IMG/VR virus record: IMGVR_UViG_3300030430_004473
Coordinates: 11,828 to 75,827 of that record
Origin: a virus
Strand: one strand, 5' to 3'
Length of the DNA stretch: 64,000 bases
Made by a program: the position numbers and the translations under genes. Below, one piece after another: positions 1-64,000 of the stretch. Positions within the stretch are counted from its first letter, which is position 1, and every line of letters begins with the position of its first letter. The notes below the pieces were generated by a model that made no database searches, was not told the origin of the DNA, and worked only from the letters and a program-made list of their open reading frames with translations.

Positions 1-1
1 T

Positions 2-361
2 CTGGATCACAAAGAGCATAATTATTATAGTCAGACATGTCGAGCTTATTACAGAAGTAGTAAATATCCTTGTGTTACTTGTACTCAACCGCCAAAATTT
101 ATTTCTCATGATGATAATTCAATAGTCTATCCTACAATTCGAGAAATAGAGCTGATGATAGGTTTACCGGAAGGATATACATCAATACATAACGCATATT
201 ATAAACGGCTTCATAACATAGGAAATGGGTGGGATATTCCAACGATAGAGCATATCCTTCAAGACATCCAGGCTTTGCTGAAGAATAATAAATATCAAGC
301 TCGCAGACCTATCCAAATGCAGTTATTCAGAGATCCGGAGCTTGATTGTCAGATTGACTGA
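2..361 (+). CDS. C5-cytosine DNA methyltransferase, C-terminal part (5' end outside the window)
   Basis: The frame is open from position 2. PTIREIELMIGLPEGYT is motif IX-like and LHNIGNGW is motif X-like. QMQLF lies near the C-terminus. Confidence 0.75.
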   Translation: MDHKEHNYYSQTCRAYYRSSKYPCVTCTQPPKFISHDDNSIVYPTIREIELMIGLPEGYTSIHNAYYKRLHNIGNGWDIPTIEHILQDIQALLKNNKYQARRPIQMQLFRDPELDCQID

Positions 362-371
362 CTTCTAACTT

Positions 372-824
372 CTAACTTTTATCGTTGAGAAGTTTGAACA
401 ACTGATATGACTTTTCAAAGTGGCCACCAAGATGAAGAGAGTTTTTAGCTCTAGATCTAGAGTCATTGGTTTGAATGATTTCAACGATTTTAGCATTGAG
501 CTGGTTCTTTCTTCTGGTGCTCATTCCAACATAAACTTGGAATTCAGCTATAGTTTTGGTTCCTCTCTTACTGTTACATCTTTTGCAACAAGTGATGAGA
601 TTGTTAGCTAGATTGCTACCTCCCTGAGAATCCGGAACGATATGATCTAAAGATAAAGAATTCCAGAAGTCATTTCTTTTGATATTATCTTTCTCTATCT
701 GTGACTCAGACATGCCACAGTACCAGCACTTTCTTTGGTCTCGAAAGTAGATCGCTTGACGCTTTTCTCGCGCGATCCAGCTTCCAGCATGACGTTTTGC
801 TTTGCGATTTCTTTTTGTAGGCAT
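372..824 (-). CDS. HNH endonuclease
   Basis: RD..CWYCG ... LDHIVPDSQGGSNLANNLITCCKRCNSKRG is a classic McrA-type HNH signature. It has its own promoter and an AACAACGGAG leader. Confidence 0.9.
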   Translation of the reverse strand: MPTKRNRKAKRHAGSWIAREKRQAIYFRDQRKCWYCGMSESQIEKDNIKRNDFWNSLSLDHIVPDSQGGSNLANNLITCCKRCNSKRGTKTIAEFQVYVGMSTRRKNQLNAKIVEIIQTNDSRSRAKNSLHLGGHFEKSYQLFKLLNDKS

Positions 825-854
825 AATAAACTCCGTTGTTGTTAGTCATAATTT

Positions 855-883
855 ATTCTAACACAAAACGTATTACTATACAA
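855..883 (-). promoter_or_regulatory. sigma70-type promoter with palindromic operator
   Basis: Minus strand TTGTAT-17nt-TAGAAT. Operator TAATACGTTTTGTGTTA at 859-875. Confidence 0.65.
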
Positions 884-895
884 CAAAAAGAGAAT

Positions 896-1432
896 TTATT
901 TTATTTTTCTTTCAATAAACTTCTTCAGACGATCTTCATTGATAGAGAAACAATATAGATCTTCACCGTTGTGATTGTAGGTGGGGCCGGTAACAAGCTC
1001 GAATACTTTATCTTTTGGAACATTCTGATAATGATATTCTGTAGCTGTATCATGATCGTGATTCCAAGCTATATAGAAACGAACATTGAAAGAATTATCT
1101 TGATTTCTAGTTATTTTCATAGGTTCTATATAGTGAATCCATCCCTCGTTTGTAACCGAGAAACCAATTTTATTTGCGTATTCTTTTATTTGAACAAAAG
1201 AACGTTCTACAGAACGATTGATCCAAGCTTCGAAACTGATAACTTGTTTCAGTTCTTTTTTAGAATCATCATCATAGACTATTGTAATATCAATAGGATC
1301 GTGGCCTTCGTAATGATATGTATAGCCACCGCCAAAATATTGATCTTCTTTGTTTTCAGTAACCAGCTTAGAATTACTGAATTGAAGATTAGAAATCTTT
1401 TTATCAAATAGGTCTGTATGTTTATTAGTCAT
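896..1432 (-). CDS. hypothetical protein
   Basis: 178-aa ORF preceded by ACAACGGAGG leader. Confidence 0.75.
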   Translation of the reverse strand: MTNKHTDLFDKKISNLQFSNSKLVTENKEDQYFGGGYTYHYEGHDPIDITIVYDDDSKKELKQVISFEAWINRSVERSFVQIKEYANKIGFSVTNEGWIHYIEPMKITRNQDNSFNVRFYIAWNHDHDTATEYHYQNVPKDKVFELVTGPTYNHNGEDLYCFSINEDRLKKFIERKIK

Positions 1433-1490
1433 AATATCCTCCGTTGTAAGTAATAAATAATATGTATTGTTGTATCTTTGCAGACAGCTT

Positions 1491-1700
1491 TCAAAATGGA
1501 ATTTTCAATATTTCTTCAGCTAGATATTTGGCTTTGTGTGCTAACGTCATAGCTTCGAGACTATTGAAATCCGGATCTACAAACTTGATATGCATGAAAA
1601 CGCATATTTCCGGTGTTAGTTCTTTGCGAAGTCCACCGGCTCGGTGAACCTTTTTCATCATTAAATAATGATCGATCAAATAAGAAATAGAATCTACCAT
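1491..1700 (-). CDS. hypothetical protein (likely start MVDSIS at 1700)
   Basis: ATG overlaps the stop of a 30-aa hydrophobic mini-ORF at 1694-1786. Confidence 0.5.
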   Translation of the reverse strand: MVDSISYLIDHYLMMKKVHRAGGLRKELTPEICVFMHIKFVDPDFNSLEAMTLAHKAKYLAEEILKIPF

Positions 1701-1775
1701 AACATTTCTACCAATGAATAAACCAACATCATCATAGCAATCCAAAGTATTCCGATTTCTAATTTAGATAGGTCG

Positions 1776-2999
1776 TTACGTTTCATCTTTCAGCTCTAAT
1801 TTGAAGTTATAATCTTGTATTCTATATGTATCTTTTATTTTGAGCTGTTGTTGAAATCTTTTGTAATCTACATGATGATGATACCTATTAAATTTCTTTG
1901 TTACAGTTACACAATCGGGATGTTGATCTTGTAGCGATTTAGCAAACAGATATCTATCATCATTGTCAGTATAAACTGAATCAGTGTTACCACCTTTCAT
2001 TCTCATAGAAGCTACTTTATCTCCCAAAAATGTAGCGAAGTTTATCGTGCAGAATCCGGCTTTTAAGATACGCAAACACAGATCTGTATCTTCATTGTAC
2101 CGGCCTCGCCAAAGCTTTCCGTTTATCTTTATTTGGTTGTTTATTTCTTTATTCATTAAGCTCATAGAATAGACTCTCGTATTCAAATAATACGGAGGAA
2201 TACAGAAGTCATTTTTACAAAGTCCTAGATGATACATGCCTGATATTCCTACATTCGTATATCTATCAGTAAAGTCCTCTACAGCTGCAAATATAGCTGG
2301 TGACTTCACACGATAAGAAATGTTATTGGTCATTCTCCAGAAGTATCGAATATTATCATCAAGTAACCAGTATTTTTGAGACGTTACATGATCATCAATC
2401 CAATTACGAACCGGAATAGAAGAAGCTGTTGTTGTATCAAAATCGCCAGTAATGACTCTATTTCCGTATATAGATTGATAGGGTTCTATTTCATTAGGTT
2501 CTACTACGATATAGAAGTCAACGCCCATCCACATTAAAGTTTGAGCAGTTAAACAAGTTTCAGCTCTTCCTTTGCTTATTATGTATATTGGATATCTAGG
2601 TTTTATATCATCAGAAGTATAAATATATTTGTTGATACCTTTTTCATGCTTGTCTTTTTTAGGATACCAGATCGATTTTGTTTTTTCTGTAATCGGTTGT
2701 TCAAAGAAGTCACTGAGCTGATCACAAGTGAAGTTTGTTTTAAGTTCTATATGATGATACGGATATACTTTGATTGATCGGTATTCTGGCATGTCGGTCC
2801 ACTCAAAATCATCACAATTAATTTCATAGTGTTTCTTTTCTCGATTATCTTTTTTGGCAGTAATGATCGTAGTATTGCCAAACAAATCCAGGCCGGTATT
2901 CATATCAACAGATCTATATTTGATTAGATCCATGTTTATCTTTTTAGAAATGCTTTCAACAGCTGAAATGCTATCAAATCTTACTTGTATCGTTCTCAT
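1776..2999 (-). CDS. GREB1-like / TET-associated (TAGT) GT-A fold DNA glycosyltransferase with fused N-terminal accessory domain
   Basis: PRYPIYIISKGRA, VVEPNE, RNWI, WLLDDNI, RVYS, WRGRYNEDTDLCLR, MKGGNT, RYHHHVDY. The likely start is MRTIQV at 2999 (GAGG RBS); the ORF track starts at 3110. Confidence 0.75.
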   Translation of the reverse strand: MRTIQVRFDSISAVESISKKINMDLIKYRSVDMNTGLDLFGNTTIITAKKDNREKKHYEINCDDFEWTDMPEYRSIKVYPYHHIELKTNFTCDQLSDFFEQPITEKTKSIWYPKKDKHEKGINKYIYTSDDIKPRYPIYIISKGRAETCLTAQTLMWMGVDFYIVVEPNEIEPYQSIYGNRVITGDFDTTTASSIPVRNWIDDHVTSQKYWLLDDNIRYFWRMTNNISYRVKSPAIFAAVEDFTDRYTNVGISGMYHLGLCKNDFCIPPYYLNTRVYSMSLMNKEINNQIKINGKLWRGRYNEDTDLCLRILKAGFCTINFATFLGDKVASMRMKGGNTDSVYTDNDDRYLFAKSLQDQHPDCVTVTKKFNRYHHHVDYKRFQQQLKIKDTYRIQDYNFKLELKDET

Positions 3000-3066
3000 A
3001 GTATCCTCATAAGAAAGTGATAGCCTAACGTATTGTAGGCTATCTGTTGTTGTTCTATTTAGAAGA

Positions 3067-3687
3067 TTACCACGGTTGATTATTTGCCCATTTGCGGATA
3101 TCTGCTCCACGAATACCGTATGTCATTTGATAATCAGAACCTTCAGTATATTCATCTTCTACTCTCATATATCCACCGTCTGCAGCTGATTTTGATTTCA
3201 TCCATTTTACATTTTCAAGTGCTTTATACAACCAGTGGAACCCCACACTGTACTGAAGATCATCCCATGAGTGGTTGTTTTCATCAGCATATAGTTCTAT
3301 ATATCCAGCTTCATCAAACGATACGTGATAGTGCTTAAAAAAAGCATTATCTATAAGATTTTGCTTTAGATCTTTTTGATTTAATCTTTTAATTTCTTTA
3401 TTCCAAACTTTTCCGACAAGTTCTTCTTTTTCATCATACCAACCATGTGTTCTTAAACCGGTTGGAACGTATGACCAATTATCTTTCTTAAAAACAGAAA
3501 AGACTACTGATAATTGTTCTTTTTCAGAAAGACTTTCCCACTTCTTTCTACTTTTCATGCTTTTCTTCTTTTCGTTTATTATTTTCACAAATTGATTGTG
3601 TTTTGTAACTATGTATTTGATGAGCTTGTTATATTCGCTCATTTTACCTATTTTGAAAGATCCCTTAGCTTCTTGATTACATGACAT
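3067..3687 (-). CDS. hypothetical protein
   Basis: 206-aa ORF with AACAACGGAG leader and promoter TTGACT-16-TATAAT (3730-3757). Confidence 0.75.
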   Translation of the reverse strand: MSCNQEAKGSFKIGKMSEYNKLIKYIVTKHNQFVKIINEKKKSMKSRKKWESLSEKEQLSVVFSVFKKDNWSYVPTGLRTHGWYDEKEELVGKVWNKEIKRLNQKDLKQNLIDNAFFKHYHVSFDEAGYIELYADENNHSWDDLQYSVGFHWLYKALENVKWMKSKSAADGGYMRVEDEYTEGSDYQMTYGIRGADIRKWANNQPW

Positions 3688-3760
3688 GATTTTTCTCCGT
3701 TGTTGAATGTTAGAATGTCTAGTAATAATATTATAGCATTTTGTATTATATAGTCAAATT

Positions 3761-4285
3761 TTAATTTGCATTTATTTCAATATATTGATCTTTTTGATCG
3801 GTTTTTTGAAATATTCCAACATTATCTCCCCAATAACCAGATTCATCAATGTAGTATTCTATTAGTGATACGTCTGTATTCCACTTTGCTAGAGCAGGAT
3901 AGGCATCAGCTAAGAATCGCCAGCAATCACGATCCCAATGATACGATCCTCTACTCGGTGTGCATATATATATGTAACCTCCAAGCTTCGTTATTCGTAC
4001 CATTTCATTGAACGTAACCCAAAAAGCTTGATCGTGTTCAAACATAGAAGTAGAAACAACAACATCAATAGAAGATGTATTGATCGGATATTTATTGTGA
4101 GCTTCAACAACAATATCAACCCCTTCAGCTTGTCTTATATCTAGTGTTCTATAATTGTGTTCAGCGAAAAGATTTCTCAGATTTCCGTTTATGTCGGCCC
4201 CTCCGATATCAATTACTTCAAGGCCTGGCCGTGATAGGTACTTGTTTACGAATTTCGTTATATTATTTAGGGCAGTTGGGTGCAT
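3761..4285 (-). CDS. class I SAM-dependent methyltransferase (Methyltransf_11-like)
   Basis: VIDIGG SAM-binding loop, DVVVSTSMFEHD, GGYIYI, DCWRF. Confidence 0.85.
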   Translation of the reverse strand: MHPTALNNITKFVNKYLSRPGLEVIDIGGADINGNLRNLFAEHNYRTLDIRQAEGVDIVVEAHNKYPINTSSIDVVVSTSMFEHDQAFWVTFNEMVRITKLGGYIYICTPSRGSYHWDRDCWRFLADAYPALAKWNTDVSLIEYYIDESGYWGDNVGIFQKTDQKDQYIEINAN

Positions 4286-4966: not shown

Positions 4967-5001
4967 TAGATTGTGATATAATATAAATATACGGAGAACC
5001 T

Positions 5002-8726: not shown

Positions 8727-9356
8727 TTAATCAATATTCATGATCTTCTGTGTTTGTAGACTGAGCTTCCAAGTCGGCCTGGCTTTGCAGTACTCGATAG
8801 ATTCTTTCATATATTGTTTGTTCTTACTTTCATCTTTACTGTCTAACGGTTGTATATAATAATGATCAGCAGTAATATACTTAGAAACCAAGTCAGGATC
8901 TAAAGCTGGATAGACTACTTTCAATTCGTGAGCATGTTCAAGCTTCTGTCGAGATCTTGATTTTGGACTACAACAAATCCAATCAATATTTGGCGGTGGT
9001 ATAATAGATCCGTTTGTTTCTACAGCTACATAATATCCGTTATCTTTCAATGTCTGTATCAATTCAAATTTAACTTGCAACAAAGGTTCGCCACCGGTTA
9101 AAACTACAAACTTGCATGATTCTGATAACATCAGAAGTTTATCGATCAATGTATCGCCAGAATAGACGCCACCGTTTTGACCGTTTATTCCTATGAAGTC
9201 CGTATCACAGAAATTACATATTGCGTTTTTTCTATGTTCTTCTCTACCGGACCAGAAGTTACAGCTTGAAAAACGAACGAATATAGCCGGCCTACCGCTA
9301 TGAAAACCTTCACCTTGTATAGAGTAAAATATTTCTTTAATTGCGTAGTTTTTCAT
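8727..9356 (-). CDS. queE: 7-carboxy-7-deazaguanine synthase (radical SAM, CX14CX2C type)
   Basis: EIFYSIQGEG, FVRFSSCNFWSG...CNFCDT, VLTGGEP, VETNG, CSPK, WKLSLQT. Confidence 0.93.
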   Translation of the reverse strand: MKNYAIKEIFYSIQGEGFHSGRPAIFVRFSSCNFWSGREEHRKNAICNFCDTDFIGINGQNGGVYSGDTLIDKLLMLSESCKFVVLTGGEPLLQVKFELIQTLKDNGYYVAVETNGSIIPPPNIDWICCSPKSRSRQKLEHAHELKVVYPALDPDLVSKYITADHYYIQPLDSKDESKNKQYMKESIEYCKARPTWKLSLQTQKIMNID

Positions 9357-10003
9357 GGTAGTGCCATGACGATTTGATCACCTTTCTGTATTCCGTTAGA
9401 AATGCATGAATTACAAGTTCCACAAGCTACATAGTTATTATTTATTTTAAGAGGTTGATAGCAGGAAGAACAACATGAAAGAACATCAATCACAATGTGA
9501 TTAGAATCATGAAAAATTTCGTCTTTGGCTATATCCATCAAAGGAGCTTCGATCCGAACATTCCAATCATCAGCTATAGAGTTAATCTTTTTCAGAAACT
9601 CAGGCCGGCAATCAACATAATCAGCTACATCATCCAACACGGCCCCGTATTGAATAACATTAGCACCGTTACATACAGCTACATTTATAGCCATGTTGAG
9701 CATAATAGCGTTTCTATTAGGTACTACTCTAGATCCTGTGTTCCCACTTCCTATTTCCATAGATTTGGCATTGATAGGCAAGTATAGACTTTGATATTCA
9801 AATGTATCATCATAATAAGATATCAGTTTCTTATAGATCAAAAGACTCGCTAACTTTTCAGCTTCTTTTGCTGGATGATCATAATCTATATGAAGTAGTA
9901 GAGCTTTTCCACTCTTCAAAGAAATAGCATGTTGAAGTGCTAGAATCGTGCTATCGATCCCACCGGAGAAAAGGATAATCTTCTTTACTGTCATTTTTTC
10001 CAA
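9353..10003 (-). CDS. queC: 7-cyano-7-deazaguanine (preQ0) synthase
   Basis: FSGGIDST PP-loop, VPNRN, YVDCRPEF, SCY, CGTCNSC zinc site. Confidence 0.9.
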   Translation of the reverse strand: MEKMTVKKIILFSGGIDSTILALQHAISLKSGKALLLHIDYDHPAKEAEKLASLLIYKKLISYYDDTFEYQSLYLPINAKSMEIGSGNTGSRVVPNRNAIMLNMAINVAVCNGANVIQYGAVLDDVADYVDCRPEFLKKINSIADDWNVRIEAPLMDIAKDEIFHDSNHIVIDVLSCCSSCYQPLKINNNYVACGTCNSCISNGIQKGDQIVMALP

Positions 10004-10823
10004 GTCCTATATAGTCTGTGTCAATCAATAGCATTTCGTCATACGTTGATGAACAAATGCCAAAAATAGACAATCGTTGTTGTAGTGTTTTAAGTATTGT
10101 AAATGTTAGTTTTTCTTCTAAAAATAATGTAGTTTGTTTCTTCTTCATAGCAAAGTAATTAATGAATTTCTTATTGTGAGTAAGAAACTGAGTATAGCCG
10201 GACCCGTCTATGCTTTTTACTTTATGAGCTAGACAATACTTTAATCTTCTCATTGTGTTGACTCTACCAACATGGCACCATACATCATGTTCCATACATA
10301 AAGAAGATATCCACGGAATAGCTTCTAGTTTTGGTTCTGTTGTTCCACCTACGAAAATACCATATCCTCTACTAACAAAAGGAAGAAGATCGTCTTTGGT
10401 CATGCCATCTTGCCAAACAAGTAATAACTTCGTATCTAGATCTAGTTGTTCTAACCGATCAATCCACTCATCAGCTTGTTCCAGTGTTGCTTTGCTATCT
10501 CCTACTACATCAGGAATCGCAATCCAGTCAGCTCCGTTTCCTAAGTCTTTACACATGTTAATAAATCGATCTTCATCAAAGTCTGTTCCTTTGTTGTAAT
10601 CAATATAAGCACCGTTATCCAGGCCGTATCCTCTCAAGTTGATAGAATGAAGTAGATAGTCTTTTTTGTTCCAGAATTGTGGACTCAGTACAACACGCAT
10701 AGCCAAACGAGAAAACACTTTATGACGTTGAATATCATTCTTTCTATGTACTGAATGAATGAAAGATCCATACATAACAATGTTCATTTCTTTATAGATA
10801 TTATGATCGTCAGCTATTATCAT
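9951..10823 (-). CDS. DpdA-like TGT-fold DNA 7-deazaguanine transglycosylase
   Basis: LDNGAY, IPDVVGD, VWQDG, FVGG, HVGRVNT, SIDGS match TGT-barrel strand motifs. It sits directly upstream of queC-queE. Confidence 0.7.
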   Translation of the reverse strand: MIIADDHNIYKEMNIVMYGSFIHSVHRKNDIQRHKVFSRLAMRVVLSPQFWNKKDYLLHSINLRGYGLDNGAYIDYNKGTDFDEDRFINMCKDLGNGADWIAIPDVVGDSKATLEQADEWIDRLEQLDLDTKLLLVWQDGMTKDDLLPFVSRGYGIFVGGTTEPKLEAIPWISSLCMEHDVWCHVGRVNTMRRLKYCLAHKVKSIDGSGYTQFLTHNKKFINYFAMKKKQTTLFLEEKLTFTILKTLQQRLSIFGICSSTYDEMLLIDTDYIGLGKNDSKEDYPFLRWDR

Positions 10824-10918: not shown

Positions 10919-13696
10919 ATGGAATTTGCTATTGTTGTTCCTACAATGGGACTATCACACGTTAAAGAATTATGTCAATCTATCATTGAAAACTGGAGGG
11001 GTAGAGGTCTATTGGTTCTGTCTTTCAATCCTAAAGATACGCACATGGCCTTGTTAGTAAAAAATGAATGTGATTCATTATTGAAAGCAGCTACAGAATC
11101 AATGCATGGTTTTGAATACAAGATTATCTATCATGATCATCCTTTGGGTTTTGGTGCAGCTGTTAATGTTGGTCTGAGAGAAATACCAAACTTAAAAGAA
11201 ATAAAGCAAGTCATTATATTGAATGATGATTGTATAGTTACTTCTGGCTGGCGAGAGGGTTTATGGAATGGTCATATTACTAACAAAGCCCAAACAGCTC
11301 ATCAAAGCATGACAGGAAAAGAACAATCTCCGATAGGTTTGCTGGGTGGACCGGTCGGCTTGGTTTCAGCATGTTCGTTTAATGTATCCGGTGAACAGAA
11401 TATTGGTAATGAAGGAAACTTGAAAGCTTTTGAAAAAATGGGCATTAAAGAATTTTCTCGTCAATATAAACTTCAGTTATCAAATCAATACCTTAGAGCT
11501 GACTTTATTAGTGGGTTTGTCTTATCTATTGAAAATAGTTGTTTTTGGGATCTTGTAGAAGAAACAGAAAAAGGAATCTGTTTATTTGATGAACGATTTT
11601 TGATAGGTGGTTTTGAAGATAATGATCTATGTTATCGAGCAACAAAAGCTGGATATCAAATGTTGATAGCGAAAGATACGTTTATTCATCATCTCGGTCA
11701 CAAATCATTTGGTTCATACTATCCAGAAGCTCTAGTGGGTTTACATAATCGTGATGTATATTACAACAAATGGAAAGAAGAAACACAACGAGATCAGAAA
11801 CTTGTAGCTGCTTACAGACTTGCAATAAAATGCGTTAATGATTTGGTACAGTTCCGATCTTCAGTGAAAAAAGCTATTGGCGTTGGTGTTAAAGGTTTTG
11901 CGATTTTACTGACGAACAATCCGAAATCGTTACTAGATTCTTATGACAAAAACCTACTTCATTCTTTGCCACCAGAAGAAAGAAAATTTGCTGAAGAGCT
12001 GGTCAAATGTCAAGATCAAGAGGCAATAATCGAGAAGTTTGAAGATTACATAACGATATTGACCGGATATGTAGAGGCCAATTTAGGCTATACCGATTGG
12101 AAGAGTTTCAATGAACGAAAAGAAAGAAACAGAACACACGAATTAGCTGAAGAAATGGGAGCTGATTGGATCATTTCTATAGATAGTGATGAAGTCATAG
12201 AAGATCGTATTACAAAAGACTATATGGATCGATTGATGAAACATCCTGATCCTTTGGTTATGGGCTATCATACCGGCTGGATCAATCACTGGGAAACAAT
12301 GAATCTAGTAAGAACAGACAAACCTTTTACAAGCGGACCAGACTTGAAAGCTAGTATGATTGGCGTTAGAATGTGGAAAACTAGAAAGAATCCTTTGAGA
12401 ATAGTATCAGGAACAGACAACGGCTTACATTGTGGTAATGCACCGGAATATAGTCCATACACAATTCGAGTAGCCGGTTTTCGATTCAGACACTTGTCAC
12501 ATGTTCGAGGTGTTGACAGAATAGCAAAGAAATTATTTTATGACAACATAGATCAATCTAAAGAATCAATCTTTATAGGCCAAAATGATGGCTACAATCA
12601 TATAGTTCAACGTGATGATGTTGTAGTTCAGTTGTTCAATCCAGCGAACGGAATAGCTGGTTTTATGCTTTGCTACGAAGAAGAAGAAACAGAATTAGTA
12701 GCTCAAAAGTTAGAATTGATGTATTCGGTTTGTGATTATGCAATTATAGTTTGGACTAGCAAAGAAGAAAAGAGTGAAAAACTATTATCATTAGCTGCTC
12801 ATTATAAAGCGATATGGCTACACAAAGAGTTTGATCGTAATGTAGGACTATCTGAATGTAGAAACGCAGCTGTAGACTATATTCGAGAAAACCTATTACA
12901 AAAAGGTGTCAGTTGGGCGTTGTTCTATGACCCTGATGAAATGTTGTTGGAATCTCCACATGTTCACAATGCAAGTATTAGAAGATGTGCAGAATTGAAT
13001 GACAGTTGGGGTATTTCATTCACTTTCAAAAACAAATTGCCAAAAGGTTCGACACTTCCTGTATCTAACAGTTCTTCTATTCGTATGTTCAGAGTAGATC
13101 CGCAAGGCATTATGCGTTTTAGCGGTAGAGTTCATGAGTCATTTGATGATAGTTTAACGTTTTTACAAAATCAAAATATCAATCCTTTGATTAAAACATT
13201 CCCATACAACATGTTGAATCTAGGCCTATCCAAAGATCCAGAAGCTATGAAAAAGAAATTATTGAAGTATACAGAAATGCTAGTGAATGACTTAGAACAA
13301 AATCCTTTACGATCTCAGTGTTGGCTAGCTCTAGGTTTGCAATATGTTAATGAAGGTGACATGGAAAAAGCAGAAATCTGTATGGAACGAAGTTGTATGA
13401 CAGCTGGCGGTGCATATATGCCGTTCAAAGAGTTGGCAACGATACAAATAAACAAAACATTAGCTCTGATATTGAAGTCAAAAGAAAGATTAAATGGTGG
13501 AGAGTCTGTTTATTGGCCTGGTGTTGACGATCTTATCAAAGTCATTACGAAAGTTGTTCCTCCTCATCCTATTATCAATACGGGTCCGAAGAACATCATA
13601 GAAGATTTGGAATTGCCTTTCTTCCCTTATGATCGTATAACAGTAAATGAAGAAGGCGATTTTATAATTATACCAGAGCAACAAAATGAAGAATAA
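10919..13696 (+). CDS. multi-domain GT2 glycosyltransferase (three GT-A domains plus TPR-like C-terminus)
   Basis: GFGAAVN/ILNDD/FDERF..GFEDNDL; ERKERN/IISIDSDE; SECRN/FYDPDE/FSGRVHE; WLALGLQY TPR-like end. Confidence 0.85.
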   Translation: MEFAIVVPTMGLSHVKELCQSIIENWRGRGLLVLSFNPKDTHMALLVKNECDSLLKAATESMHGFEYKIIYHDHPLGFGAAVNVGLREIPNLKEIKQVIILNDDCIVTSGWREGLWNGHITNKAQTAHQSMTGKEQSPIGLLGGPVGLVSACSFNVSGEQNIGNEGNLKAFEKMGIKEFSRQYKLQLSNQYLRADFISGFVLSIENSCFWDLVEETEKGICLFDERFLIGGFEDNDLCYRATKAGYQMLIAKDTFIHHLGHKSFGSYYPEALVGLHNRDVYYNKWKEETQRDQKLVAAYRLAIKCVNDLVQFRSSVKKAIGVGVKGFAILLTNNPKSLLDSYDKNLLHSLPPEERKFAEELVKCQDQEAIIEKFEDYITILTGYVEANLGYTDWKSFNERKERNRTHELAEEMGADWIISIDSDEVIEDRITKDYMDRLMKHPDPLVMGYHTGWINHWETMNLVRTDKPFTSGPDLKASMIGVRMWKTRKNPLRIVSGTDNGLHCGNAPEYSPYTIRVAGFRFRHLSHVRGVDRIAKKLFYDNIDQSKESIFIGQNDGYNHIVQRDDVVVQLFNPANGIAGFMLCYEEEETELVAQKLELMYSVCDYAIIVWTSKEEKSEKLLSLAAHYKAIWLHKEFDRNVGLSECRNAAVDYIRENLLQKGVSWALFYDPDEMLLESPHVHNASIRRCAELNDSWGISFTFKNKLPKGSTLPVSNSSSIRMFRVDPQGIMRFSGRVHESFDDSLTFLQNQNINPLIKTFPYNMLNLGLSKDPEAMKKKLLKYTEMLVNDLEQNPLRSQCWLALGLQYVNEGDMEKAEICMERSCMTAGGAYMPFKELATIQINKTLALILKSKERLNGGESVYWPGVDDLIKVITKVVPPHPIINTGPKNIIEDLELPFFPYDRITVNEEGDFIIIPEQQNEE

Positions 13697-42046: not shown

Positions 42047-42997
42047 ATGGGTTTGACAAAATTATCAAAAGAGAAATTAAGTAACAATCTTGATTTAGTT
42101 GTATCAGTAAGCGGAGGAAAAGACAGTACAGCTACATGTCTGTATTTGTTAGAAAACGGATATACAACGAATGATTTTGAAAGAGTATTTTTTGATACAG
42201 GCTGGGAATCCAAAGAAACGTATGACTATTTAGATTACTTAGAAACTAAGATCGGAAAGATCACACGATTAAAGAAACATGTCGATATTTCTCAATTTCC
42301 GAAAGAAACGCAACAAATGATTTTAGAAATTGAAAGTGATCTAGGTTTTGAAAGCCCGTTTGTAAGACTATGTTTCTATCATAAGTGTATGCCTAGTAGA
42401 TTTCGCAAGTGGTGTACTAGAAGCTTGAAACTAGAAGTAGTTAAAGATTATTTCGACAATCATGATAATGATGTAATATCTATCATAGGCGTTCGAAGAG
42501 CTGAAAGTAGAGCTAGAGCAAATGTAGAAGAATGGGATTATCATGATCATTTAGATTGTGATGTATGGAGGCCGTTATATCTATGGTCGGAAAAAGACGT
42601 AATTGATATACACAATAAGCATAATATTCTACCGAATAATTTGTATCTACAAGGAAGCTCGAGAGTGGGTTGCTATCCTTGTATTTATGCAAAGAAAAAA
42701 GAAATTTCTATTTTAAGTACAGAACGAATAAAAATAATTGAAAAATTAGAAAAGTATACTGGTATTCATACGAAAAAAACAACAAACACACAATCACAAA
42801 TTGAAAGATTAGAAGAAGTAAAAGAAAAATACGGATATTATTTCAATCAATTTTTTTCAAGAAAAGAACATGATCCTTTTTCTGAAGTTGTTCTTTGGAG
42901 CAAAACAACGCACGGTGGAAAACAATTTAAATTGTTTGATACAGACGAACCATCTTGTAGTAAATGGGGTTTGTGTTCAGTTTGGGAAAATAAATAA
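42047..42997 (+). CDS. PAPS-reductase-family (PP-loop, DndC-like) protein
   Basis: SVSGGKDS, FFDTGWE, RKWCTRSLK, GVRRAESRAR, RVGCYPC. Confidence 0.85.
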   Translation: MGLTKLSKEKLSNNLDLVVSVSGGKDSTATCLYLLENGYTTNDFERVFFDTGWESKETYDYLDYLETKIGKITRLKKHVDISQFPKETQQMILEIESDLGFESPFVRLCFYHKCMPSRFRKWCTRSLKLEVVKDYFDNHDNDVISIIGVRRAESRARANVEEWDYHDHLDCDVWRPLYLWSEKDVIDIHNKHNILPNNLYLQGSSRVGCYPCIYAKKKEISILSTERIKIIEKLEKYTGIHTKKTTNTQSQIERLEEVKEKYGYYFNQFFSRKEHDPFSEVVLWSKTTHGGKQFKLFDTDEPSCSKWGLCSVWENK

Positions 42998-43012
42998 CAA
43001 AAGGAGAGGATA

Positions 43013-43693
43013 ATGTCTACAGACGAATCAAGTCAGAAAAGCAGACATCTACAATTAAATCTTTGCAAGATATTGAACTTAGAAGAAGAAGAAGATTATA
43101 AAAAGATAAAGACAGATAATCTTACTCAGATAGGTTCGTCAGCTCATGCAGATAACGAAAGAGAAAAAAATGACTTCTATGCTACGCCACAATCAGCTGT
43201 AGTTAATTTCTTAAATTGTTATCTATACAGAGATAAAGAAGTGTTAGATAAAAATCTATGGGAATGTTCCTGTGGGGATGGTGCTATATCGAAGATTTTG
43301 GAAAACAACGGATATAATGTTTTTTCATCAGATTTGATAGATAGAGGATATGGAGAACAAAGCGATTTTATGACTTATCAAGAAAATGTTGGAGGTGGCG
43401 ACATAATTACAAACCCACCTTTCAAATTGATTCTTCCTTTCTTAGAACACGCAATCAAATTATTAGAAAATGGAAATAAGTTAATATTCTTAATGCGTCT
43501 ACTTTGTTTAGAAGGAAAGCAAAGAAACGAATTTTTTAAGAAACATCCAATTAAATATGTCTATATTCATACAACGAGAATAGCTTGTACTTTGCCTGAT
43601 GTTCAAACCAAACCAGTTACAGCGATAGCTTATGCTTGGTATGTATGGGAAAAAGGCTATGAGGGTGAAACTGTTATTCGTTGGTTGCCTTAG
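43013..43693 (+). CDS. DNA amino-methyltransferase (NPPF type)
   Basis: DFYATP, WECSCGDGAI, SDLIDRGYG, IITNPPF, YAWYVW. Confidence 0.85.
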   Translation: MSTDESSQKSRHLQLNLCKILNLEEEEDYKKIKTDNLTQIGSSAHADNEREKNDFYATPQSAVVNFLNCYLYRDKEVLDKNLWECSCGDGAISKILENNGYNVFSSDLIDRGYGEQSDFMTYQENVGGGDIITNPPFKLILPFLEHAIKLLENGNKLIFLMRLLCLEGKQRNEFFKKHPIKYVYIHTTRIACTLPDVQTKPVTAIAYAWYVWEKGYEGETVIRWLP

Positions 43694-43705
43694 AGGAATA
43701 GAACA

Positions 43706-44311
43706 ATGATACAATTACACAACAAAGATTGTCTGGAAGCTATGAAGTCAATGAAAACAGATCAATTTGATCTAGCTATTGTAGATCCGCCTTACGGAAT
43801 GCTCGAGGCCGGTATGCAAATGGGTGGAAAAAAAGGATCTTCTTTTCAACGTAAAGAAGTAAACAAATGGGATAAAAAGCCACCGAAAGAATATTTTGAT
43901 GAACTGTTTCGAGTATCAAAGAATCAGATTATCTGGGGTGGTAACTACTTCGGTCTACCACCTACGAGAGAATGTATTTGTTGGGATAAAAAGAATTGTA
44001 TGCCGTCTTTTTCACGTTGGGAAATGGCATGGACCAGCTTCAAAGGTGTGATGAAAATGTATGAACATATAAGTCAAAATCCAAATAGAATACATCCAAC
44101 ACAAAAGCCGGTAGCTCTATATATGTGGCTACTTAATACTTATGCAAAGCAGGGAGATAAGATCCTAGATACGCATATCGGATCTGGCAGTATTGCAATA
44201 GCTTGCCATGAGCTGAAGTATGATCTTGAAGGTTATGAAATAAATAAAAAATACTATCAGAAAACAATGTATAGACTCAAACAACATCAAAGACAATTGA
44301 AATTATTTTAA
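43706..44311 (+). CDS. DNA N6/N4 methyltransferase (beta class)
   Basis: DLAIVDPPY, HPTQKP, LDTHIGSGS. Confidence 0.92.
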   Translation: MIQLHNKDCLEAMKSMKTDQFDLAIVDPPYGMLEAGMQMGGKKGSSFQRKEVNKWDKKPPKEYFDELFRVSKNQIIWGGNYFGLPPTRECICWDKKNCMPSFSRWEMAWTSFKGVMKMYEHISQNPNRIHPTQKPVALYMWLLNTYAKQGDKILDTHIGSGSIAIACHELKYDLEGYEINKKYYQKTMYRLKQHQRQLKLF

Positions 44312-44325
44312 CGGAAATAACGAAC

Positions 44326-44934
44326 ATGATAAACATATACAATGAAGATTGTTTACAAGCTATGAAAAACATGAATGATAATAGTTTTGATCTAGCTATC
44401 GTTGATCCTCCGTTTGGAATTGGAAACTTTGTTCAAACTAGCGGGGCCAAACGTGGATCAAAAGTTGATTGGAATGATAACATTCCGACAGAAGAATATT
44501 TTTCAGAACTGAAAAGAGTATCAAAGAATAGAATCATATTTGGAGCAAATTATTTTAATTGCTTTGAAGAAAAATATGGAGCTATTATTTGGGTAAAAAA
44601 TCAACCCATGCCGGATTTTTCAAAGGCCGTGATTGCTTCATGCACTTTTCACAAAAAGATTGAAATATATGAACAAACATGGACTAACTTTGTAGCTAAA
44701 GGAAGAAGTACAAAACATCCTTGTGAAATGCCTGTTGGAATATACAAATGGATTTTGCGTAACTATGCAAAGCAAGGAGATAAAATATTAGATACTCACT
44801 TAGGCTCTGGTTCAATCGCAATAGCTTGTGATGATATGGGCTATTCGTTGGATGGGTACGAACTAGATACAGGATATTATGAAGAAGCTTGTAAACGATT
44901 GAAACAACATCAAAGACAATTAAAGCTCTTTTAA
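44326..44934 (+). CDS. DNA N6/N4 methyltransferase (beta class), tandem paralog
   Basis: DLAIVDPPF, HPCEMP, LDTHLGSGS. Confidence 0.92.
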   Translation: MINIYNEDCLQAMKNMNDNSFDLAIVDPPFGIGNFVQTSGAKRGSKVDWNDNIPTEEYFSELKRVSKNRIIFGANYFNCFEEKYGAIIWVKNQPMPDFSKAVIASCTFHKKIEIYEQTWTNFVAKGRSTKHPCEMPVGIYKWILRNYAKQGDKILDTHLGSGSIAIACDDMGYSLDGYELDTGYYEEACKRLKQHQRQLKLF

Positions 44935-51661: not shown

Positions 51662-52102
51662 ATGACAAACTTCTTTCAATCCACAAAACGATTCTCCGGA
51701 TATTCGGTAGCTTTCAGACAGTACAAAGCCACACACTCTCATTGTCAATACATACATGGATACTCGCTTGAATTCATAGCTACCTTTCAAGGACAACTTG
51801 ATCAATATAACTGGGTCAATGACTTCGGTATATTCTCAAAAAATGGCACCAAACAACAACTAAAATATATGTTCGACCATACAACCCTCGTAGATGAAAA
51901 CGATCCACACATCAATATCTTTCAAACTCTTCATCATAAAAAAATCATTCAAATGAGAGTCGTGGAAAACCTATCATCTGAATACTTCGCTAAAATCGTG
52001 TTCGATATCCTTTCTGAACAAAATACCGATCTCATGAAATGTATCAAAGTAGAATGTATCGAAAACAAAAATAACTCAGCTTCTTATTCAATAGGAATAT
52101 AA
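51662..52102 (+). CDS. queD: 6-carboxy-5,6,7,8-tetrahydropterin synthase
   Basis: HCQYIHGY, W..DFG, FDHT, SSE.FA, E...NSA. Confidence 0.88.
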   Translation: MTNFFQSTKRFSGYSVAFRQYKATHSHCQYIHGYSLEFIATFQGQLDQYNWVNDFGIFSKNGTKQQLKYMFDHTTLVDENDPHINIFQTLHHKKIIQMRVVENLSSEYFAKIVFDILSEQNTDLMKCIKVECIENKNNSASYSIGI

Positions 52103-57642: not shown

Positions 57643-57921
57643 GAATACAAAAAGCATTATTATGCTAAGCTCACCACATCACAAAAAAACGACCTCCTTC
57701 TTTGGAGGTTGTTCTAGTTTTGTATGAAAAAATTGTATCAGCTGAAAAAAAAGATCACGATCTCGATCTTTTTCGATCAGCAACCAGGCCGTTATATCCG
57801 CAGTGCAAAATATTTATTGAAAAAAAATGAAATTATTTTGAAAAAAAACACTTTGAACTATTTACATCTAACGTAATATGTATTAGAATATATATATAAG
57901 CAATCAACAACGGAGATTCAA

Positions 57922-59253: not shown

Positions 59254-59284
59254 ATATTTAATTTAACAACAATAGGAGATTAAC

Positions 59285-59836
59285 ATGTATTCATGCATAT
59301 TATTTAATATTCAAAACTCGACAGTGAGCAAAAAATGTTCAGTTCTAGATCTAGAAGCTGGAAAAAATTCAATCAAAGTAAGAAGAGCTATATATTTGAA
59401 ACTCGAAGCTCTTCATGCGGTCCAGCTACAGAAAAGTTCAATGCTATTTGTATTCAATGATAAATATAAAGATCAAATCATAGAAGTAGCTCAATCTATC
59501 AAAAATCAAGGTGGTGAAGTTTGTATATTTAAGGTATCTGATGAGCTAGGTTGTATAGAAAAGATAGTAGAATCAGGATATCAGGCCGATCATGATCTTT
59601 TCAAGTCTGTACTTGATAAAGCTGCAAATCAGAAAAGAAAGAATAAAGCAGAGGCCCAACTTCAGAATATACTAGATAAATGGTTGGCCTTTCTAAATTT
59701 CTATAGTCCTATTCAAAGAAAGAACATGCAGATCTTAATTGATCGTATGTTATTACTAGGTTTGACAAATGTAGAAGTATCAGAACAATTTATCAGTGTA
59801 ACATTACCGGAAATAGATCATGACATCACTCAATGA
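59285..59836 (+). CDS. hypothetical protein
   Basis: AGGAG RBS. Confidence 0.7.
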   Translation: MYSCILFNIQNSTVSKKCSVLDLEAGKNSIKVRRAIYLKLEALHAVQLQKSSMLFVFNDKYKDQIIEVAQSIKNQGGEVCIFKVSDELGCIEKIVESGYQADHDLFKSVLDKAANQKRKNKAEAQLQNILDKWLAFLNFYSPIQRKNMQILIDRMLLLGLTNVEVSEQFISVTLPEIDHDITQ

Positions 59837-60296
59837 ACAAATGATAGACATAGCCAAAACGCTATATTTACAGACTCGATATGCTCAAGCTAGTCTAGTT
59901 ATAGAAGATCGAATATCCGTTAGCGAAATGAGACAAATAAGCTTTGAGTTTCGGGTTCTGGATGAAGATAAATGGATAGTAAAAGACTGGGAACCGGTTG
60001 GAGATATTCATGATATGAAATTAAAAGATTCAATGACAGATTCGCTCAAAACAACTTCACAGGGCATTTTTTTGATTGGGGTTAGTGAAGGTCACTTGAT
60101 AGGTCTGTTATTTGCTACGGAAGGCGTTATAGCTGATTACAGAAGTAGTTTGGAAAACAACATAATCAGTTTTGAATCATATAGTAGTATGGAAGCTTGT
60201 ATGGATGAAGCTCCAGGCCGGTGGTCCGTTCGTACTGGTGAACCTTTGCACAAGCCGATCAAGTGGGATCAGCTCATGAAGTGTGATCATCAATAA
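59820..60296 (+). CDS. hypothetical protein
   Basis: Operonic overlap with the upstream gene. Confidence 0.65.
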   Translation: MTSLNEQMIDIAKTLYLQTRYAQASLVIEDRISVSEMRQISFEFRVLDEDKWIVKDWEPVGDIHDMKLKDSMTDSLKTTSQGIFLIGVSEGHLIGLLFATEGVIADYRSSLENNIISFESYSSMEACMDEAPGRWSVRTGEPLHKPIKWDQLMKCDHQ

Positions 60297-60469
60297 AAAA
60301 ATAAATTTATTTTGAAAAAAGTAGATCGTCTATATTGTTGTATATGACGGCCTATTTTCGTATTGCCAAAAATAAATATGAAAATAATACAGCAATTCGT
60401 ATAAATAACACTTGCATATTACACAGAATGTATTAAGATATATATATAACAACAACAACGGAGAATGTT

Positions 60470-60604: not shown

Positions 60605-60662
60605 TAGGTACTTCAATAAAGCCAAAATAATACATAATACTTTAATATAAACGGAGAAAATT

Positions 60663-60863: not shown

Positions 60864-60865
60864 TC

Positions 60866-61045: not shown

Positions 61046-61129
61046 GAGAAAACGTGCAGTTCGAAAGCTGCACGCCAGATGAGGAATCTTGAAACCCGCA
61101 CGGTCAATTATTATACCATAGGAAAAGTC

Positions 61130-61438: not shown

Positions 61439-61692
61439 ATCTAACGTCAATCTATTCACTAAATAAAAAACAAGCTACCGGACTTCAGATCGTAGAAGTA
61501 GAAAGTTGGACCGAGGGAAGCTCTATAAAACTACTATCAGAAGCTCAGATAACGTCTTTACAAGTAGATCCTATGATTACTATGATTAAGGTTATAGGAC
61601 ATGTCGTTTGGGAAAAAAAGAAGTATATTCAAGCTTATACACTTCCTGAATATAATAAGATCAAAGAATATTTATCAAGTAGGTATCAATAA
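61432..61692 (+). CDS. hypothetical protein
   Basis: Operonic. Confidence 0.6.
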   Translation: MLDLTSIYSLNKKQATGLQIVEVESWTEGSSIKLLSEAQITSLQVDPMITMIKVIGHVVWEKKKYIQAYTLPEYNKIKEYLSSRYQ

Positions 61693-62018
61693 TGAATAAA
61701 CGAATAGAATATATCATTGACGGCCAGGCCGGTGATCATCTGTCTAAACAGACGTTTGAAGCTTTGAAACAGACTATCGAGGAAATATATAAGAAAGAGC
61801 AGGATATAATTCCTGTCATTCATCAGCTGAAACAAAACGGTTTCACTTTGGAAAAGGTGATCATCAATCATCATCAAGAAACTTCTTATCATCTAGTTCG
61901 GATAACTCATTTTTCATGGAGCTTGGAGGCTACTGTAAAGATCATTATTAAAGACCTACCAGCTGCAACTTGTAGAATTGCGATCAAATATGCGCAACAA
62001 ATTGGTTATCATATATAA
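61692..62018 (+). CDS. hypothetical protein
   Basis: Operonic; LPAATCRIAI resembles the C-terminus of small phage ABA-sandwich-type proteins. Confidence 0.6.
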   Translation: MNKRIEYIIDGQAGDHLSKQTFEALKQTIEEIYKKEQDIIPVIHQLKQNGFTLEKVIINHHQETSYHLVRITHFSWSLEATVKIIIKDLPAATCRIAIKYAQQIGYHI

Positions 62019-62179
62019 ATATTGATTTATTTTGATTTTTTTTCAGTATTTTCGAGGCCGTCTATAGCGATATAATATAGTATGTCTTAAATATTTTTTG
62101 AAATAAATACATTTTTTCTTGCAATTATCAGAATACTCTATATACTAATAATATAACAACGAACCAACGGAGAAAAGTT

Positions 62180-62674
62180 ATGTTAGTATCAATCATTACA
62201 AAAAATTCAAAATCAGAAACAATCGCAGTATTGTTAGATCTTTCAAAGTCATTTGCTGATCTTAAAGCTGAAAATCTTGAAATCGTTGAATCTTTAAAAG
62301 ATTCTTTGATCGGCAAAACTGATAGTATTTCAAATGTTGAAGTATCTGAGCAAGACGCTCAAGCTGCTATTGACAGTGTTCTTCATCCTGCTCCTAGCAA
62401 AAGAGCACCGCTAGTATTCAACCCTACTTCTGTTGCTGGTATTCCAGCTTTGGAAAGAAACGGATCGGTTTATATCGCTGGTGTATCAGTAGAGAAAACA
62501 GTAAAGATCACAACAGTAGAAAGTACTTCCAAAAAAAGAGGATCTAGAAATGGTTTAACACTTGCAAAGAAATTGTTAGGCTACAAACTACCAACATCAG
62601 CTTGGAGACAAGTAAAGCTATCAGAAGACGCTCAAATCGAATTGGGTCGTGACTTGTTCGATAGTGTGAAATAA
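62180..62674 (+). CDS. hypothetical early-type protein
   Basis: CCAACGGAG leader, promoter TTGCAA-16-TATACT, terminator at about 62699-62731. Confidence 0.8.
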   Translation: MLVSIITKNSKSETIAVLLDLSKSFADLKAENLEIVESLKDSLIGKTDSISNVEVSEQDAQAAIDSVLHPAPSKRAPLVFNPTSVAGIPALERNGSVYIAGVSVEKTVKITTVESTSKKRGSRNGLTLAKKLLGYKLPTSAWRQVKLSEDAQIELGRDLFDSVK

Positions 62675-62883
62675 TCACTATCAATCAATCAATCATCAGA
62701 AAGGGGCCACGTTGCTCCTTTCATTCTTTTTGTATGTATTGATATCGGCCTGGTCCGAGAATACAAACAGCTTGAGATATGGATGATTGTATTTATTTTC
62801 AATAATAATGAAATAAATTTAAAAAAAGTATTGACAAATATATAATGCATTATGTATAATAAATTTAACAACGGGAGTTCAAC

Positions 62884-63033
62884 ATGAAAAAGAAATATTA
62901 CTTGATTGGTTCGGAATTGTTTTTTGGTACTGCCAAAAAAGCTCAACAGAGAAACCGAGAGCTTGGATCGGTTGGTATCAGAAAGATAGTCAATAAGCGA
63001 GAATTAAAAACACTTATTGAAGAAGCTGCATAA
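62884..63033 (+). CDS. 49-aa basic microprotein
   Basis: Promoter TTGACA-18-TATAAT at 62831; AACGGGAG RBS. Confidence 0.6.
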   Translation: MKKKYYLIGSELFFGTAKKAQQRNRELGSVGIRKIVNKRELKTLIEEAA

Positions 63034-63129
63034 AAAAAAGAAACAATTTAAAAAAAAATAAAAAAGATTACACAATCTGTATTATTTATGATAGAATAGA
63101 TTATAACTAATAAACAACGGAGAAAAGTT

Positions 63130-63450
63130 ATGAATAGCGAACAACAAAATAAAATCATTACAATCATCCAAAATAATGAAGCAGCTCGCAAAGGTCAAGG
63201 AAGTAAATTGATCTTCAGAGCTGAACAGATTTTGGAAGCTCTTCGTGGTTCTGGTGCTAGTATCTCGACCAAAGGAGGAAACTATCAAACCACCATGCAA
63301 GGTTCAAACGGTGAGATATATGCCGTTTCACTTTGGAAAAGCGGAAAAGTATCTTGTGGGTGCCAATTTTTTCGTACCAACGATCAACGTCAATCAATAG
63401 GGTGTAAACACACTATCGCCCTTTGCAAAGCGCTCGAACCTCTTTCATAG
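63130..63450 (+). CDS. SWIM zinc-finger protein
   Basis: YAVSL......SCGC...........GCKHTIAL. Confidence 0.75.
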   Translation: MNSEQQNKIITIIQNNEAARKGQGSKLIFRAEQILEALRGSGASISTKGGNYQTTMQGSNGEIYAVSLWKSGKVSCGCQFFRTNDQRQSIGCKHTIALCKALEPLS

Positions 63451-63498
63451 GGGTTTGGGTTAGCTGCTGATCAAATCATCAAGATAGGCCGGCCTGGC

Positions 63499-63804
63499 CT
63501 ATTCTTCTTTTTGTTCGGACCACTTCCGAGCTATATCTTGACATTTCATGCAAGGTTCAAATATTCTGGCAACGATTGAACAGTGACCGCTATAATGATG
63601 AATTAGCATTTTGGTACAACAATCATAATTAATAGATTCTTCAACAAATAATCTTTTATGATCATCAGCTCCGATAATAATAACTATTCTTTCAAGCTGA
63701 TATTTATCTCTATTCAAGCTTATATCTTCTATCAATACATTCTCTTTATTCAGAAGCTGCACGGCCAGGCCTAGTGCTTTCTGGGCTTTCATTCTTTGAT
63801 TCAT
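63499..63804 (-). CDS. hypothetical protein
   Basis: AAGGA RBS; convergent with the SWIM gene. Confidence 0.6.
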   Translation of the reverse strand: MNQRMKAQKALGLAVQLLNKENVLIEDISLNRDKYQLERIVIIIGADDHKRLFVEESINYDCCTKMLIHHYSGHCSIVARIFEPCMKCQDIARKWSEQKEE

Positions 63805-64000
63805 GCTATTTCCTTGTTAAGGATTGTTTATTCATTCTTATATATAGCTGAAGTTCTTTATATATTTCTTTTAAGTTTGGTATATTTGGATCTGGTTCTA
63901 TTCTCTTTGTTGTGAAGAGAGCCAACTGTTGAGCTGCTATATTTGGCTTTTCAAGCTCGTATAACTGGCCTTTGATATATTCCAAACAGTTTTCAACTTC

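Follow-up and report, generated by a model that had tools for sequence, protein, structure and literature searches.

In phage genomics short palindromes are seen as avoided words, and the methyltransferases of phages as a means of ending the avoidance. In E. coli an excess of CCWGG is found together with Dcm and the very-short-patch (VSP) repair of Vsr. The avoidance of restriction sites in phages has been treated by Rusinov et al. 2018 (PMC6286503), and phage C5 cytosine DNA methyltransferases (C5-MTs) that are clustered with TET and glycosyltransferases favor GpC motifs (GpC[C/T]), one of them recognizing AGCT (Burke et al. 2021, PMC8256090). According to a follow-up preprint, such motif-limited marks seem unlikely to give broad genome protection (bioRxiv 10.1101/2023.12.21.572611). 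Over-represented palindromes in cyanobacteria, like HIP1 (GCGATCGC), have been tied to cognate orphan methyltransferases, and a repair ratchet that saturates at a set spacing has been proposed for them (Elhai 2015, PMC4390886), and GATC is reported to be over-represented in haloarchaea carrying its methylase (PMC7230728). In our literature search we found no paper describing a phage in which methylation words are both amplified and spaced at regular intervals. The stretch analyzed here, called the window, comprises 64,000 nucleotides, bases 11828–75827 of the IMG/VR record IMGVR_UViG_3300030430_004473 (75,827 bp, labeled G000), from an uncultured marine phage. AGCT, GGCC, CCGG and, less securely, GATC are over-represented in it, AGCT is evenly spaced, and some of these words are erased in related phages. 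We give about an even chance to the reading that the four palindromes are the self-modified words of the phage, freed from purging and selected for density, and in the case of AGCT also for even coverage.

The record is 100% complete according to CheckV and has a GC content of 35.6%, and near-identical DNA is present in marine or seawater metagenomes of 12 studies (run metadata). The window contains 599 AGCT, 420 GATC, 139 GGCC and 142 CCGG, together with 4 GCGC and 4 CGCG, and the totals for the 75.8-kb genome are 704 AGCT, 518 GATC, 163 GGCC and 173 CCGG. The four words are found at 2.0–2.9 times the mononucleotide expectation in the window, and GCGC and CGCG each at 0.07 times. By maximal-order Markov statistics GGCC (z = 11.9), AGCT (11.7) and CCGG (7.5) occupy ranks 1–3 among the 256 tetramers of the window, and GATC has a z of 4.3. 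The sequence-only reading had proposed the over-representation from a hand count of 13 AGCT, 11 GATC, 4 GGCC and 3 CCGG at 59281–60300, and all four counts are exact. The absence of ACGT, GCGC and CGCG that it noted there is also correct for that segment, where all three are at 0, but ACGT is near neutral genome-wide, with a ratio of observed to expected (O/E) of 0.72–0.92.

In tables of the contexts NGCN, NCGN and NATN high values are limited to the full palindromes (AGCT 2.83, GGCC 2.15, CCGG 2.28 and GATC 2.08) and every other context lies at 0.05–1.35, indicating that the enriched unit is the tetramer and not GCY. A GCY or RGC trinucleotide as target could be ruled out, the excess being limited to complete palindromes, and so could a longer hidden motif, the flanks being without an extended consensus; certain hexamers and pentamers holding the tetramers are themselves purged. 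The sites are distributed over the whole genome, including a C5-MT/HNH/glycosyltransferase cassette described below, and the two intergenic clusters named in the sequence-only reading are both inverted repeats of the hairpin type (Table 1).

109 open reading frames (ORFs) were called, with 92% of the DNA coding, and 88 genes of at least 80 aa were subjected to three kinds of shuffle: synonymous, codon permutation, and a dinucleotide-preserving synonymous shuffle, the strictest, which keeps amino acids, codons and dinucleotides. In this order the O/E values were 1.60, 1.77 and 1.33 for AGCT (z = 17.0, 18.5 and 13.5), 2.28, 2.27 and 1.43 for GGCC (12.5, 10.2 and 10.6), 1.90, 1.83 and 1.34 for CCGG (10.5, 8.6 and 8.5), and 1.36, 1.67 and 1.07 for GATC (10.4, 12.3 and 3.8), with AGCT as number one of the 256 tetramers in all three. 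Ten other phage contigs run through the same pipeline gave dinucleotide-preserving values of 0.53–1.10 for AGCT, 0.39–1.14 for GGCC and 0.50–1.19 for CCGG. Intergenic DNA (6 kb) has 13 GGCC against 3.0 expected, 41 AGCT against 19.6 and 30 GATC against 18.5, and the excess is therefore a property of the DNA and not of translation; for CCGG the numbers are 4 and 2.5, which is not significant.

These controls bear on the possibility that amino-acid, codon or dinucleotide usage produced the excess as an artefact, or that the avoidance of many other GC-containing words inflated it passively. In its favor, 79% of the coding AGCT sites are of the form NNA|GCT (Ala), and unrelated phages also have AGCT at 2–2.7 times the mononucleotide expectation and at an O/E of 1.2–1.44 in the plain synonymous shuffle. 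With dinucleotides preserved, AGCT in the unrelated phages falls to 0.87–1.10 against 1.33 here, and as they are high only in the plain shuffle, the raw AGCT excess is partly generic but the strict excess is not. The strict values of the window for AGCT, GGCC and CCGG all exceed those of the ten other phages, and the excess is found in intergenic DNA as well. In synonymous shuffles barred from creating 36 purged words the O/E remained 1.55 for AGCT, 1.34 for GATC, 2.25 for GGCC and 2.05 for CCGG, by which passive inflation through avoidance of other words was ruled out. As a general explanation an artefact is thus very improbable, and for AGCT, GGCC and CCGG, whose enrichment was kept in both Markov and codon-shuffled tests, it is essentially excluded. 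GATC is the weaker case, supported by its Markov score but marginal under the strictest control, and an artefact possibly accounts for most of its excess.

The four palindromes contrast with the rest of the restriction-type vocabulary. About 30 longer words of this type are purged in the genome and GCGC and CGCG are almost absent; GAGCTC is found once against 24 expected, CGATCG, GGATCC, CGGCCG and CCCGG are all at 0, and CATATG, ACTAGT, TGTACA, AACGTT and TTTAAA are also avoided. Like other phages that avoid restriction sites, this genome thus shuns GCGC, CGCG, GAGCTC, GGATCC, CGATCG, CGGCCG, CATATG, ACTAGT and TGTACA, but unlike them it has the four words above the neutral level and not merely un-avoided. 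Some non-palindromic words are nearly erased in the whole window, namely CATCG (1 observed, 38 expected), GATGC (3.5 and 33), ACTCC (4.5 and 31), GAAGAC, GAATGC, GATGAC and CCAGGA, the last being at 0 while CCAGGC is enriched threefold, and this points to a restriction pressure of Type IIS or Type III-like kind. AATT and TTAA are, like GCGC, CGCG and many words of 5–6 nt, under-represented relative to Markov and codon expectations. In intergenic DNA these two reach about half the expected number and in the codon-controlled tests 0.74–0.85, and the most depleted tetramers in the shuffles are coding-strand words with TAA (CTAA, TAAT and TAAA).

GATC shows a pattern of its own. GGATCC and CGATCG are at 0 across the phage family, but TGATCA is found about as often as expected. 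Dam methylation blocks BclI and has no effect on BamHI and PvuI, and the pattern of the three hexamers fits that expected for m6A of the Dam type at GATC. The genome is in this respect similar to GATC-rich phages with an orphan methylase of the Dam type and to phages with several methyltransferases, with amino-methyltransferases of its own, GATC kept, GGATCC and CGATCG purged and TGATCA tolerated, but it differs from them in that a Dam of the D12 class or of PF05869 was not found and in that the GATC excess is weak after dinucleotide correction.

A family set was assembled from large terminase subunit (TerL) relatives in IMG/VR and metagenomes, the values below being Markov or dinucleotide-preserving O/E. 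In the clade of G000 (L024, L031 and L033, TerL 98–100%) AGCT is at 1.3–1.5, GGCC at 1.4–2.0, CCGG at about 1.35–1.6 (0.97 in the strict shuffle of L031), GATC at 1.1–1.6 and GCGC and CGCG at about 0; L022, a contig without TerL, was placed in the same clade by a 92% match to C5-MT no. 2. The clade with 82–85% TerL identity (L025, L030, L026 = L008, and L007) has AGCT at 1.2–1.4, CCGG at 1.35–1.9 and GATC at 1.1–1.4, with GGCC at exactly 0 and GCGC and CGCG at about 0 (2 GCGC and 1 CGCG in L026). In the clade with 75–76% identity (L027 and L028, 42% GC) AGCT is at exactly 0 in 27.6 kb, CCGG is low, GGCC is at 1.1–1.3, GATC at 1.2–1.4 and GCGC at 1.0–1.8. These two contigs also have AGATCT once against 11 expected, and their overall pattern is the mirror image of that of the window. 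A relative with 70% TerL identity (L029 = L009, 51% GC) has AGCT at 0.98, no GGCC, one CCGG, a single CTAG, GATC at about 1.1 and GCGC at about 1.0–1.1. The relatives thus fully purge AGCT, GGCC, CCGG or CTAG, as known from restriction-site avoidance, and where the flipped words are present they are at 1.3–2.0. Within one phage family the same word is either erased or above neutral, matching a switch between restricted and self-protected states, and the flips between clades point to the DNA-modification enzymes of the phages themselves as the cause.

The flips are hard to square with a passive host signature, in which the phage would mirror the oligonucleotide usage or the orphan methyltransferases of a marine host (for example the GATC, GGCC and RCCGGY methylases conserved in cyanobacteria) and the enrichment would be inherited. 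The k-mer usage of phages is generally similar to that of their hosts, the GC content of the family spans 34–51%, as that of the hosts would, GATC is moderately enriched in every clade, and an over-representation of GATC is reported from haloarchaea with its methylase (PMC7230728). On the other side, words go from 0 to 1.3–2.0 among relatives whose terminases are 75–85% identical, the regular spacing of AGCT is not compositional, the phage has six methyltransferases of its own, and CGATCG, abundant in many cyanobacteria, is absent here. We therefore hold a host signature to be rather improbable. Searches for a host gave only distant phages as matches to the primase-helicase, a Clostridium prophage with 28% identity as the sole match to TerL in genomes, and no match to QueC, and no primase-helicase relatives were found in IMG/VR. 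No isolate phage has a megablast match to the genome, no cultured relative was found, and no tRNA genes were found in the genome.

The AGCT sites are more evenly spaced than expected. The coefficient of variation (CV) of their gaps, 0.75, is lower than that of any other of the 163 tri- and tetranucleotides present in 100 or more copies (mean 1.03, sd 0.10), compared to 1.016±0.036 in synonymous shuffles (z = -7.3) and 0.994±0.036 with uniform placement, and no gap is longer than 485 bp, the expectation being 6.8 gaps of more than 500 bp. A strict null was also used, which left the proteins and the site counts of each gene and codon phase unchanged and picked sites at random among 1,868 synonymous potential positions, and here the CV is 0.744 observed against 0.972±0.032 (z = -7.1). 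Both ends of the distribution are depleted, gaps of up to 24 bp being 14% against 23% in the strict null and those above 300 bp 1.3% against 3.7%. The pair correlation shows self-repulsion up to about 130 bp, and in the same analysis no periodicity, helical or other, was found. AGCT does not repel GGCC, CCGG or GATC, and a functional equivalence of the four words was ruled out by this lack of cross-repulsion. GGCC has a weak trend to regularity, GATC and CCGG none.

Functional arrays, among them Chi, KOPS and uptake sequences, typically show even spacing and self-repulsion, and AGCT might accordingly be read by a DNA-binding or processing protein of the phage unrelated to methylation, acting in condensation or packaging, priming, or nicking (the adjacent HNH enzyme, for instance), with the array as a binding lattice. 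The independence of AGCT from the other three palindromes and the HNH nuclease adjoining C5-MT no. 1 agree with this. There is however no helical or other periodicity and no flanking consensus, the positions are not conserved, and the excess of GGCC and CCGG as well as the total purge in relatives would be left unexplained, and we consider such a lattice distinctly unlikely.

The turnover of sites was followed in relatives at 94, 93, 77 and 75% nucleotide identity, with other tetramers of equal GC content as background. AGCT and GATC positions are conserved hardly above it (z about 1 in each case), for example to 0.43 against 0.36 at 77% identity and to 0.84 against 0.79 at 94%, and the totals are kept while positions shift, with 64 and 59 AGCT sites of which 20 are in common at 73% identity. 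The sequence-only reading had suggested that the sites are spared from AT-ward mutation; for AGCT and GATC this is not supported, the positions being kept hardly above background and the counts held through turnover, which favors a force acting on density. Only CCGG positions are extra-conserved, 0.38 against 0.08 for other all-GC tetramers in a small comparison set.

A force on density could also be a neutral ratchet, where biased mismatch repair coupled to methylation (the GmeC-directed HIP1 model of Elhai, or a Vsr-like VSP repair) turns near-cognate words into the methylated palindrome until saturation, the extra sites being functionless. Turnover at a held count and self-repulsion fit a saturating ratchet as well as they fit selection, all four transition neighbors of AGCT are depleted, GpC is common to AGCT and GGCC, and the cyanobacterial palindromes with their cognate orphan methyltransferases and set spacing (PMC4390886) are a precedent. 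Against it, a search of the phage for genes of Vsr or MutH-like kind found none, and the deamination products AGTT (0.86–0.96) and AACT (0.76–0.80) are depleted no more than GGCT and AGCC (0.62–0.78). The saturation range of about 100 bp is tenfold below any known repair tract rule, and a lytic phage has few host-repair generations per replication cycle. We regard the ratchet as unlikely. Compared with HIP1 and the alternate cyanobacterial palindromes, the words are likewise over-represented in coding and non-coding DNA, they seem to have reached a saturated density, and the amplified words vary with the lineage; one or more of the six predicted methyltransferases may be cognate, as in the cyanobacteria. 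The differences are that the words have 4 bp and are four at once, that the excess is 1.3–1.4 in the strict test and 2–2.9 against composition instead of 10–100 fold, that the genome is of a lytic-type phage, and that relatives without the amplification can lack a word altogether. With Dcm/Vsr and CCWGG the genome shares an over-represented word, here the presumed target of a C5-methyltransferase, with depleted one-step neighbors, but it has no Vsr gene, the neighbor depletion is not confined to T:G deamination products, and regular spacing is no feature of VSP repair.

The proposal that the sites are targets of the phage's own methyltransferases gained partial support from the gene content. 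Six DNA methyltransferases, two of the C5 type and four amino-methyltransferases, are predicted in the genome (Table 1). C5-MT no. 1, with a catalytic half like DNMT3 (PDB DNMT3A, 1e-28), is the first gene of a 5.2-kb cassette (G000 10.9–16.1 kb) that also encodes the HNH endonuclease and a TET-associated glycosyltransferase (TAGT), probably a DNA glycosyltransferase judging from its family match. The cassette is present in L031, whereas L027 and L028, which are AGCT-free, have at the syntenic place a mere junction of 350–500 bp between homologues of the flanking genes, so that cassette-less relatives are AGCT-free and cassette carriers AGCT-enriched; the contigs of the 82–85% clade end just before the cassette site. 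As in the described phage clusters of C5-MT, TET (5mYOX) and glycosyltransferase genes, a C5-MT adjoins a TAGT-family glycosyltransferase and genes of tailoring type, and the GpC preference published for such clusters is matched by the GpC in AGCT and GGCC. Unlike in those clusters, a TET/JBP oxygenase is not detectable in this genome, with no such signal in the 178- and 84-aa cassette ORFs, which are also too short for one, and the papers on them contain no report of motif enrichment or spacing in a phage genome. TAGT has 1238 homologues, several of them fused to a family-A DNA polymerase domain; four such fusions of 1000–1270 aa (P0143, P0184, P0228 and P0232) suggest a glycosylation of DNA coupled to replication.

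The homologues found for C5-MT no. 2, 7,180 in number, are mostly of 240–300 aa (full range 238–364) and align over 44–65% of the query, leaving its C-terminal third uncovered by all of them, and this third may be a novel target-recognition region. The tandem DPPY and DPPF enzymes are 48% identical in amino acids (via the L022 orthologue). The NPPF and DPPY ORFs (43013–44311) share a reading frame, with one TAG and 12 bases between them, and could be read as one product given stop suppression. In L022, a 93% identical sibling, the corresponding region (L022:3330–4585 against 42047–44934 of the window) lacks the PAPS-reductase-like gene, the NPPF enzyme and one beta-methylase of the tandem pair and carries a different beta-class methylase in their place, indicating that the methyltransferase set is mobile.

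Table 1. Predicted genes and intergenic structures in the window (coordinates in the window unless stated; kcal/mol for folds)
Feature	Position	Strand	Support
C5-MT no. 1, 3' part (whole gene G000 11202–12188, 328 aa)	1–361	+	PF00145 E 7e-39
HNH endonuclease, in cassette, adjoins C5-MT no. 1	372–824	-	PF14279/PF01844
Two cassette ORFs, 178 and 84 aa	896–1745	-	no Pfam or PHROG match
TAGT, with 170-aa N-terminal extension	1776–3110	-	PF20691 E 5e-28
Last two cassette genes: 206-aa ORF (weak hydrolase match) and class-I SAM methyltransferase	3067–4285	-	
7-deazaguanine genes: radical-SAM QueE-like, QueC, 290-aa DpdA-like (weak)	8727–10823	-	QueE-like PF04055 29.6 bits (cut-off 29.5); QueC PF06508 E 4e-27; DpdA-like phrog_887 E 2.4e-5 over 60 residues, weak match, no Pfam TGT match
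925-aa protein heading the next operon	10919–13696		several weak GT-A (family 2) matches, TPR-like end
C5-MT no. 2, 369 aa, catalytic half HhaI-like (PDB)	40236–41345	+	PF00145 E 2e-41
PAPS-reductase-like (PP-loop) protein, within methyltransferase cluster	42047–42997	+	PF01507 E 3e-24; phrog_424
Amino-methyltransferase, NPPF motif at residue 134, gamma-type order	43013–43693	+	phrog_799 E 2e-56
Beta-class amino-methyltransferase, 201 aa, DPPY	43706–44311	+	PF01555
Beta-class amino-methyltransferase, 202 aa, DPPF	44326–44934	+	PF01555
Beta-class amino-methyltransferase, 257 aa	50874–51647	+	PF01555 E 6e-31; PDB 5hek 1e-20
QueD (6-carboxytetrahydropterin synthase family)	51662–52102	+	PF01242 E 6e-14
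Inverted repeat with four clustered GATC	57741–57781	+	fold -15.1, z -2.8
GGCC-stem hairpin followed by U-run, between convergent genes, terminator-like	63482–63512 (approx.)	+	fold z only -1.5

In the reading that the four palindromes are self-modified words, the two C5 and four amino-methyltransferases, with TAGT beside one of the C5 enzymes, would modify them. Because modified sites would be invisible to the cognate host nucleases, the four words would be spared the purging by which GCGC, CGCG and about 30 longer sites were lost, and would then be driven above the neutral frequency by DNA-level selection for a dense coat of such sites. The AGCT coat would in addition be evenly spread, and the coat would serve as a shield or self-mark with a locally saturating benefit. 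Of the earlier suggestion that the words were selected as self marks or scaffolds, the mark or scaffold role for AGCT fits its even spacing. Several observations weigh against this reading. GAGCTC, CGGCCG and CCCGG are purged although they hold tetramers that should be protected, and the regularity of AGCT is strong in the G000 clade only, the CV being 0.81–0.82 in L025 and L030 and 1.12 in L008. The association with the cassette rests on two clades, between which CCGG and GCGC also differ, and there are contigs with C5-MT no. 1 homologues (38–55% identity) that have neither TET, TAGT nor an AGCT excess. Neither PDB matches nor homologue names allowed a specificity to be assigned to any methyltransferase, and profile searches of the genome found no Tet_JBP (PF12851, E<=1), ThyA homologue, Vsr (PF03852, E<=1) or Dam of the two kinds mentioned above.

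A more far-reaching version, which we put forward tentatively and well short of an even chance, is that the phage chromosome has co-evolved with a mobile cassette for cytosine modification or hypermodification. Gain of the cassette would turn AGCT from a purged, lethal word into a selected scaffold, written through synonymous choices about every 100 bp with regular spacing and giving shielding or self-marking over the whole chromosome, and GGCC and CCGG would switch likewise with other methyltransferases.

Apart from the methyltransferases, genes for 7-deazaguanine synthesis are found in the window, and with QueC, QueD and a QueE-like protein the phage is similar to systems of Dpd-type modification in having genes for preQ0. 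The 925-aa protein represents a second glycosyltransferase system in the genome.

The sign of the usual relation between phages and short palindromes is reversed here, as words lethal to sister phages are amplified, and AGCT regularly spaced, in a genome predicted to encode a DNA glycosyltransferase along with six methyltransferases. Provided that the sites are modified, sequence evolution can make a post-replicative and motif-limited modification genome-wide, which would answer the objection, found in papers on hypermodification, that no broad protection is to be had from marks limited to GpC. The flips between purging and amplification among related contigs can moreover be used to predict, with metagenomes as the only data, the specificities of methyltransferases and the restriction pressures.

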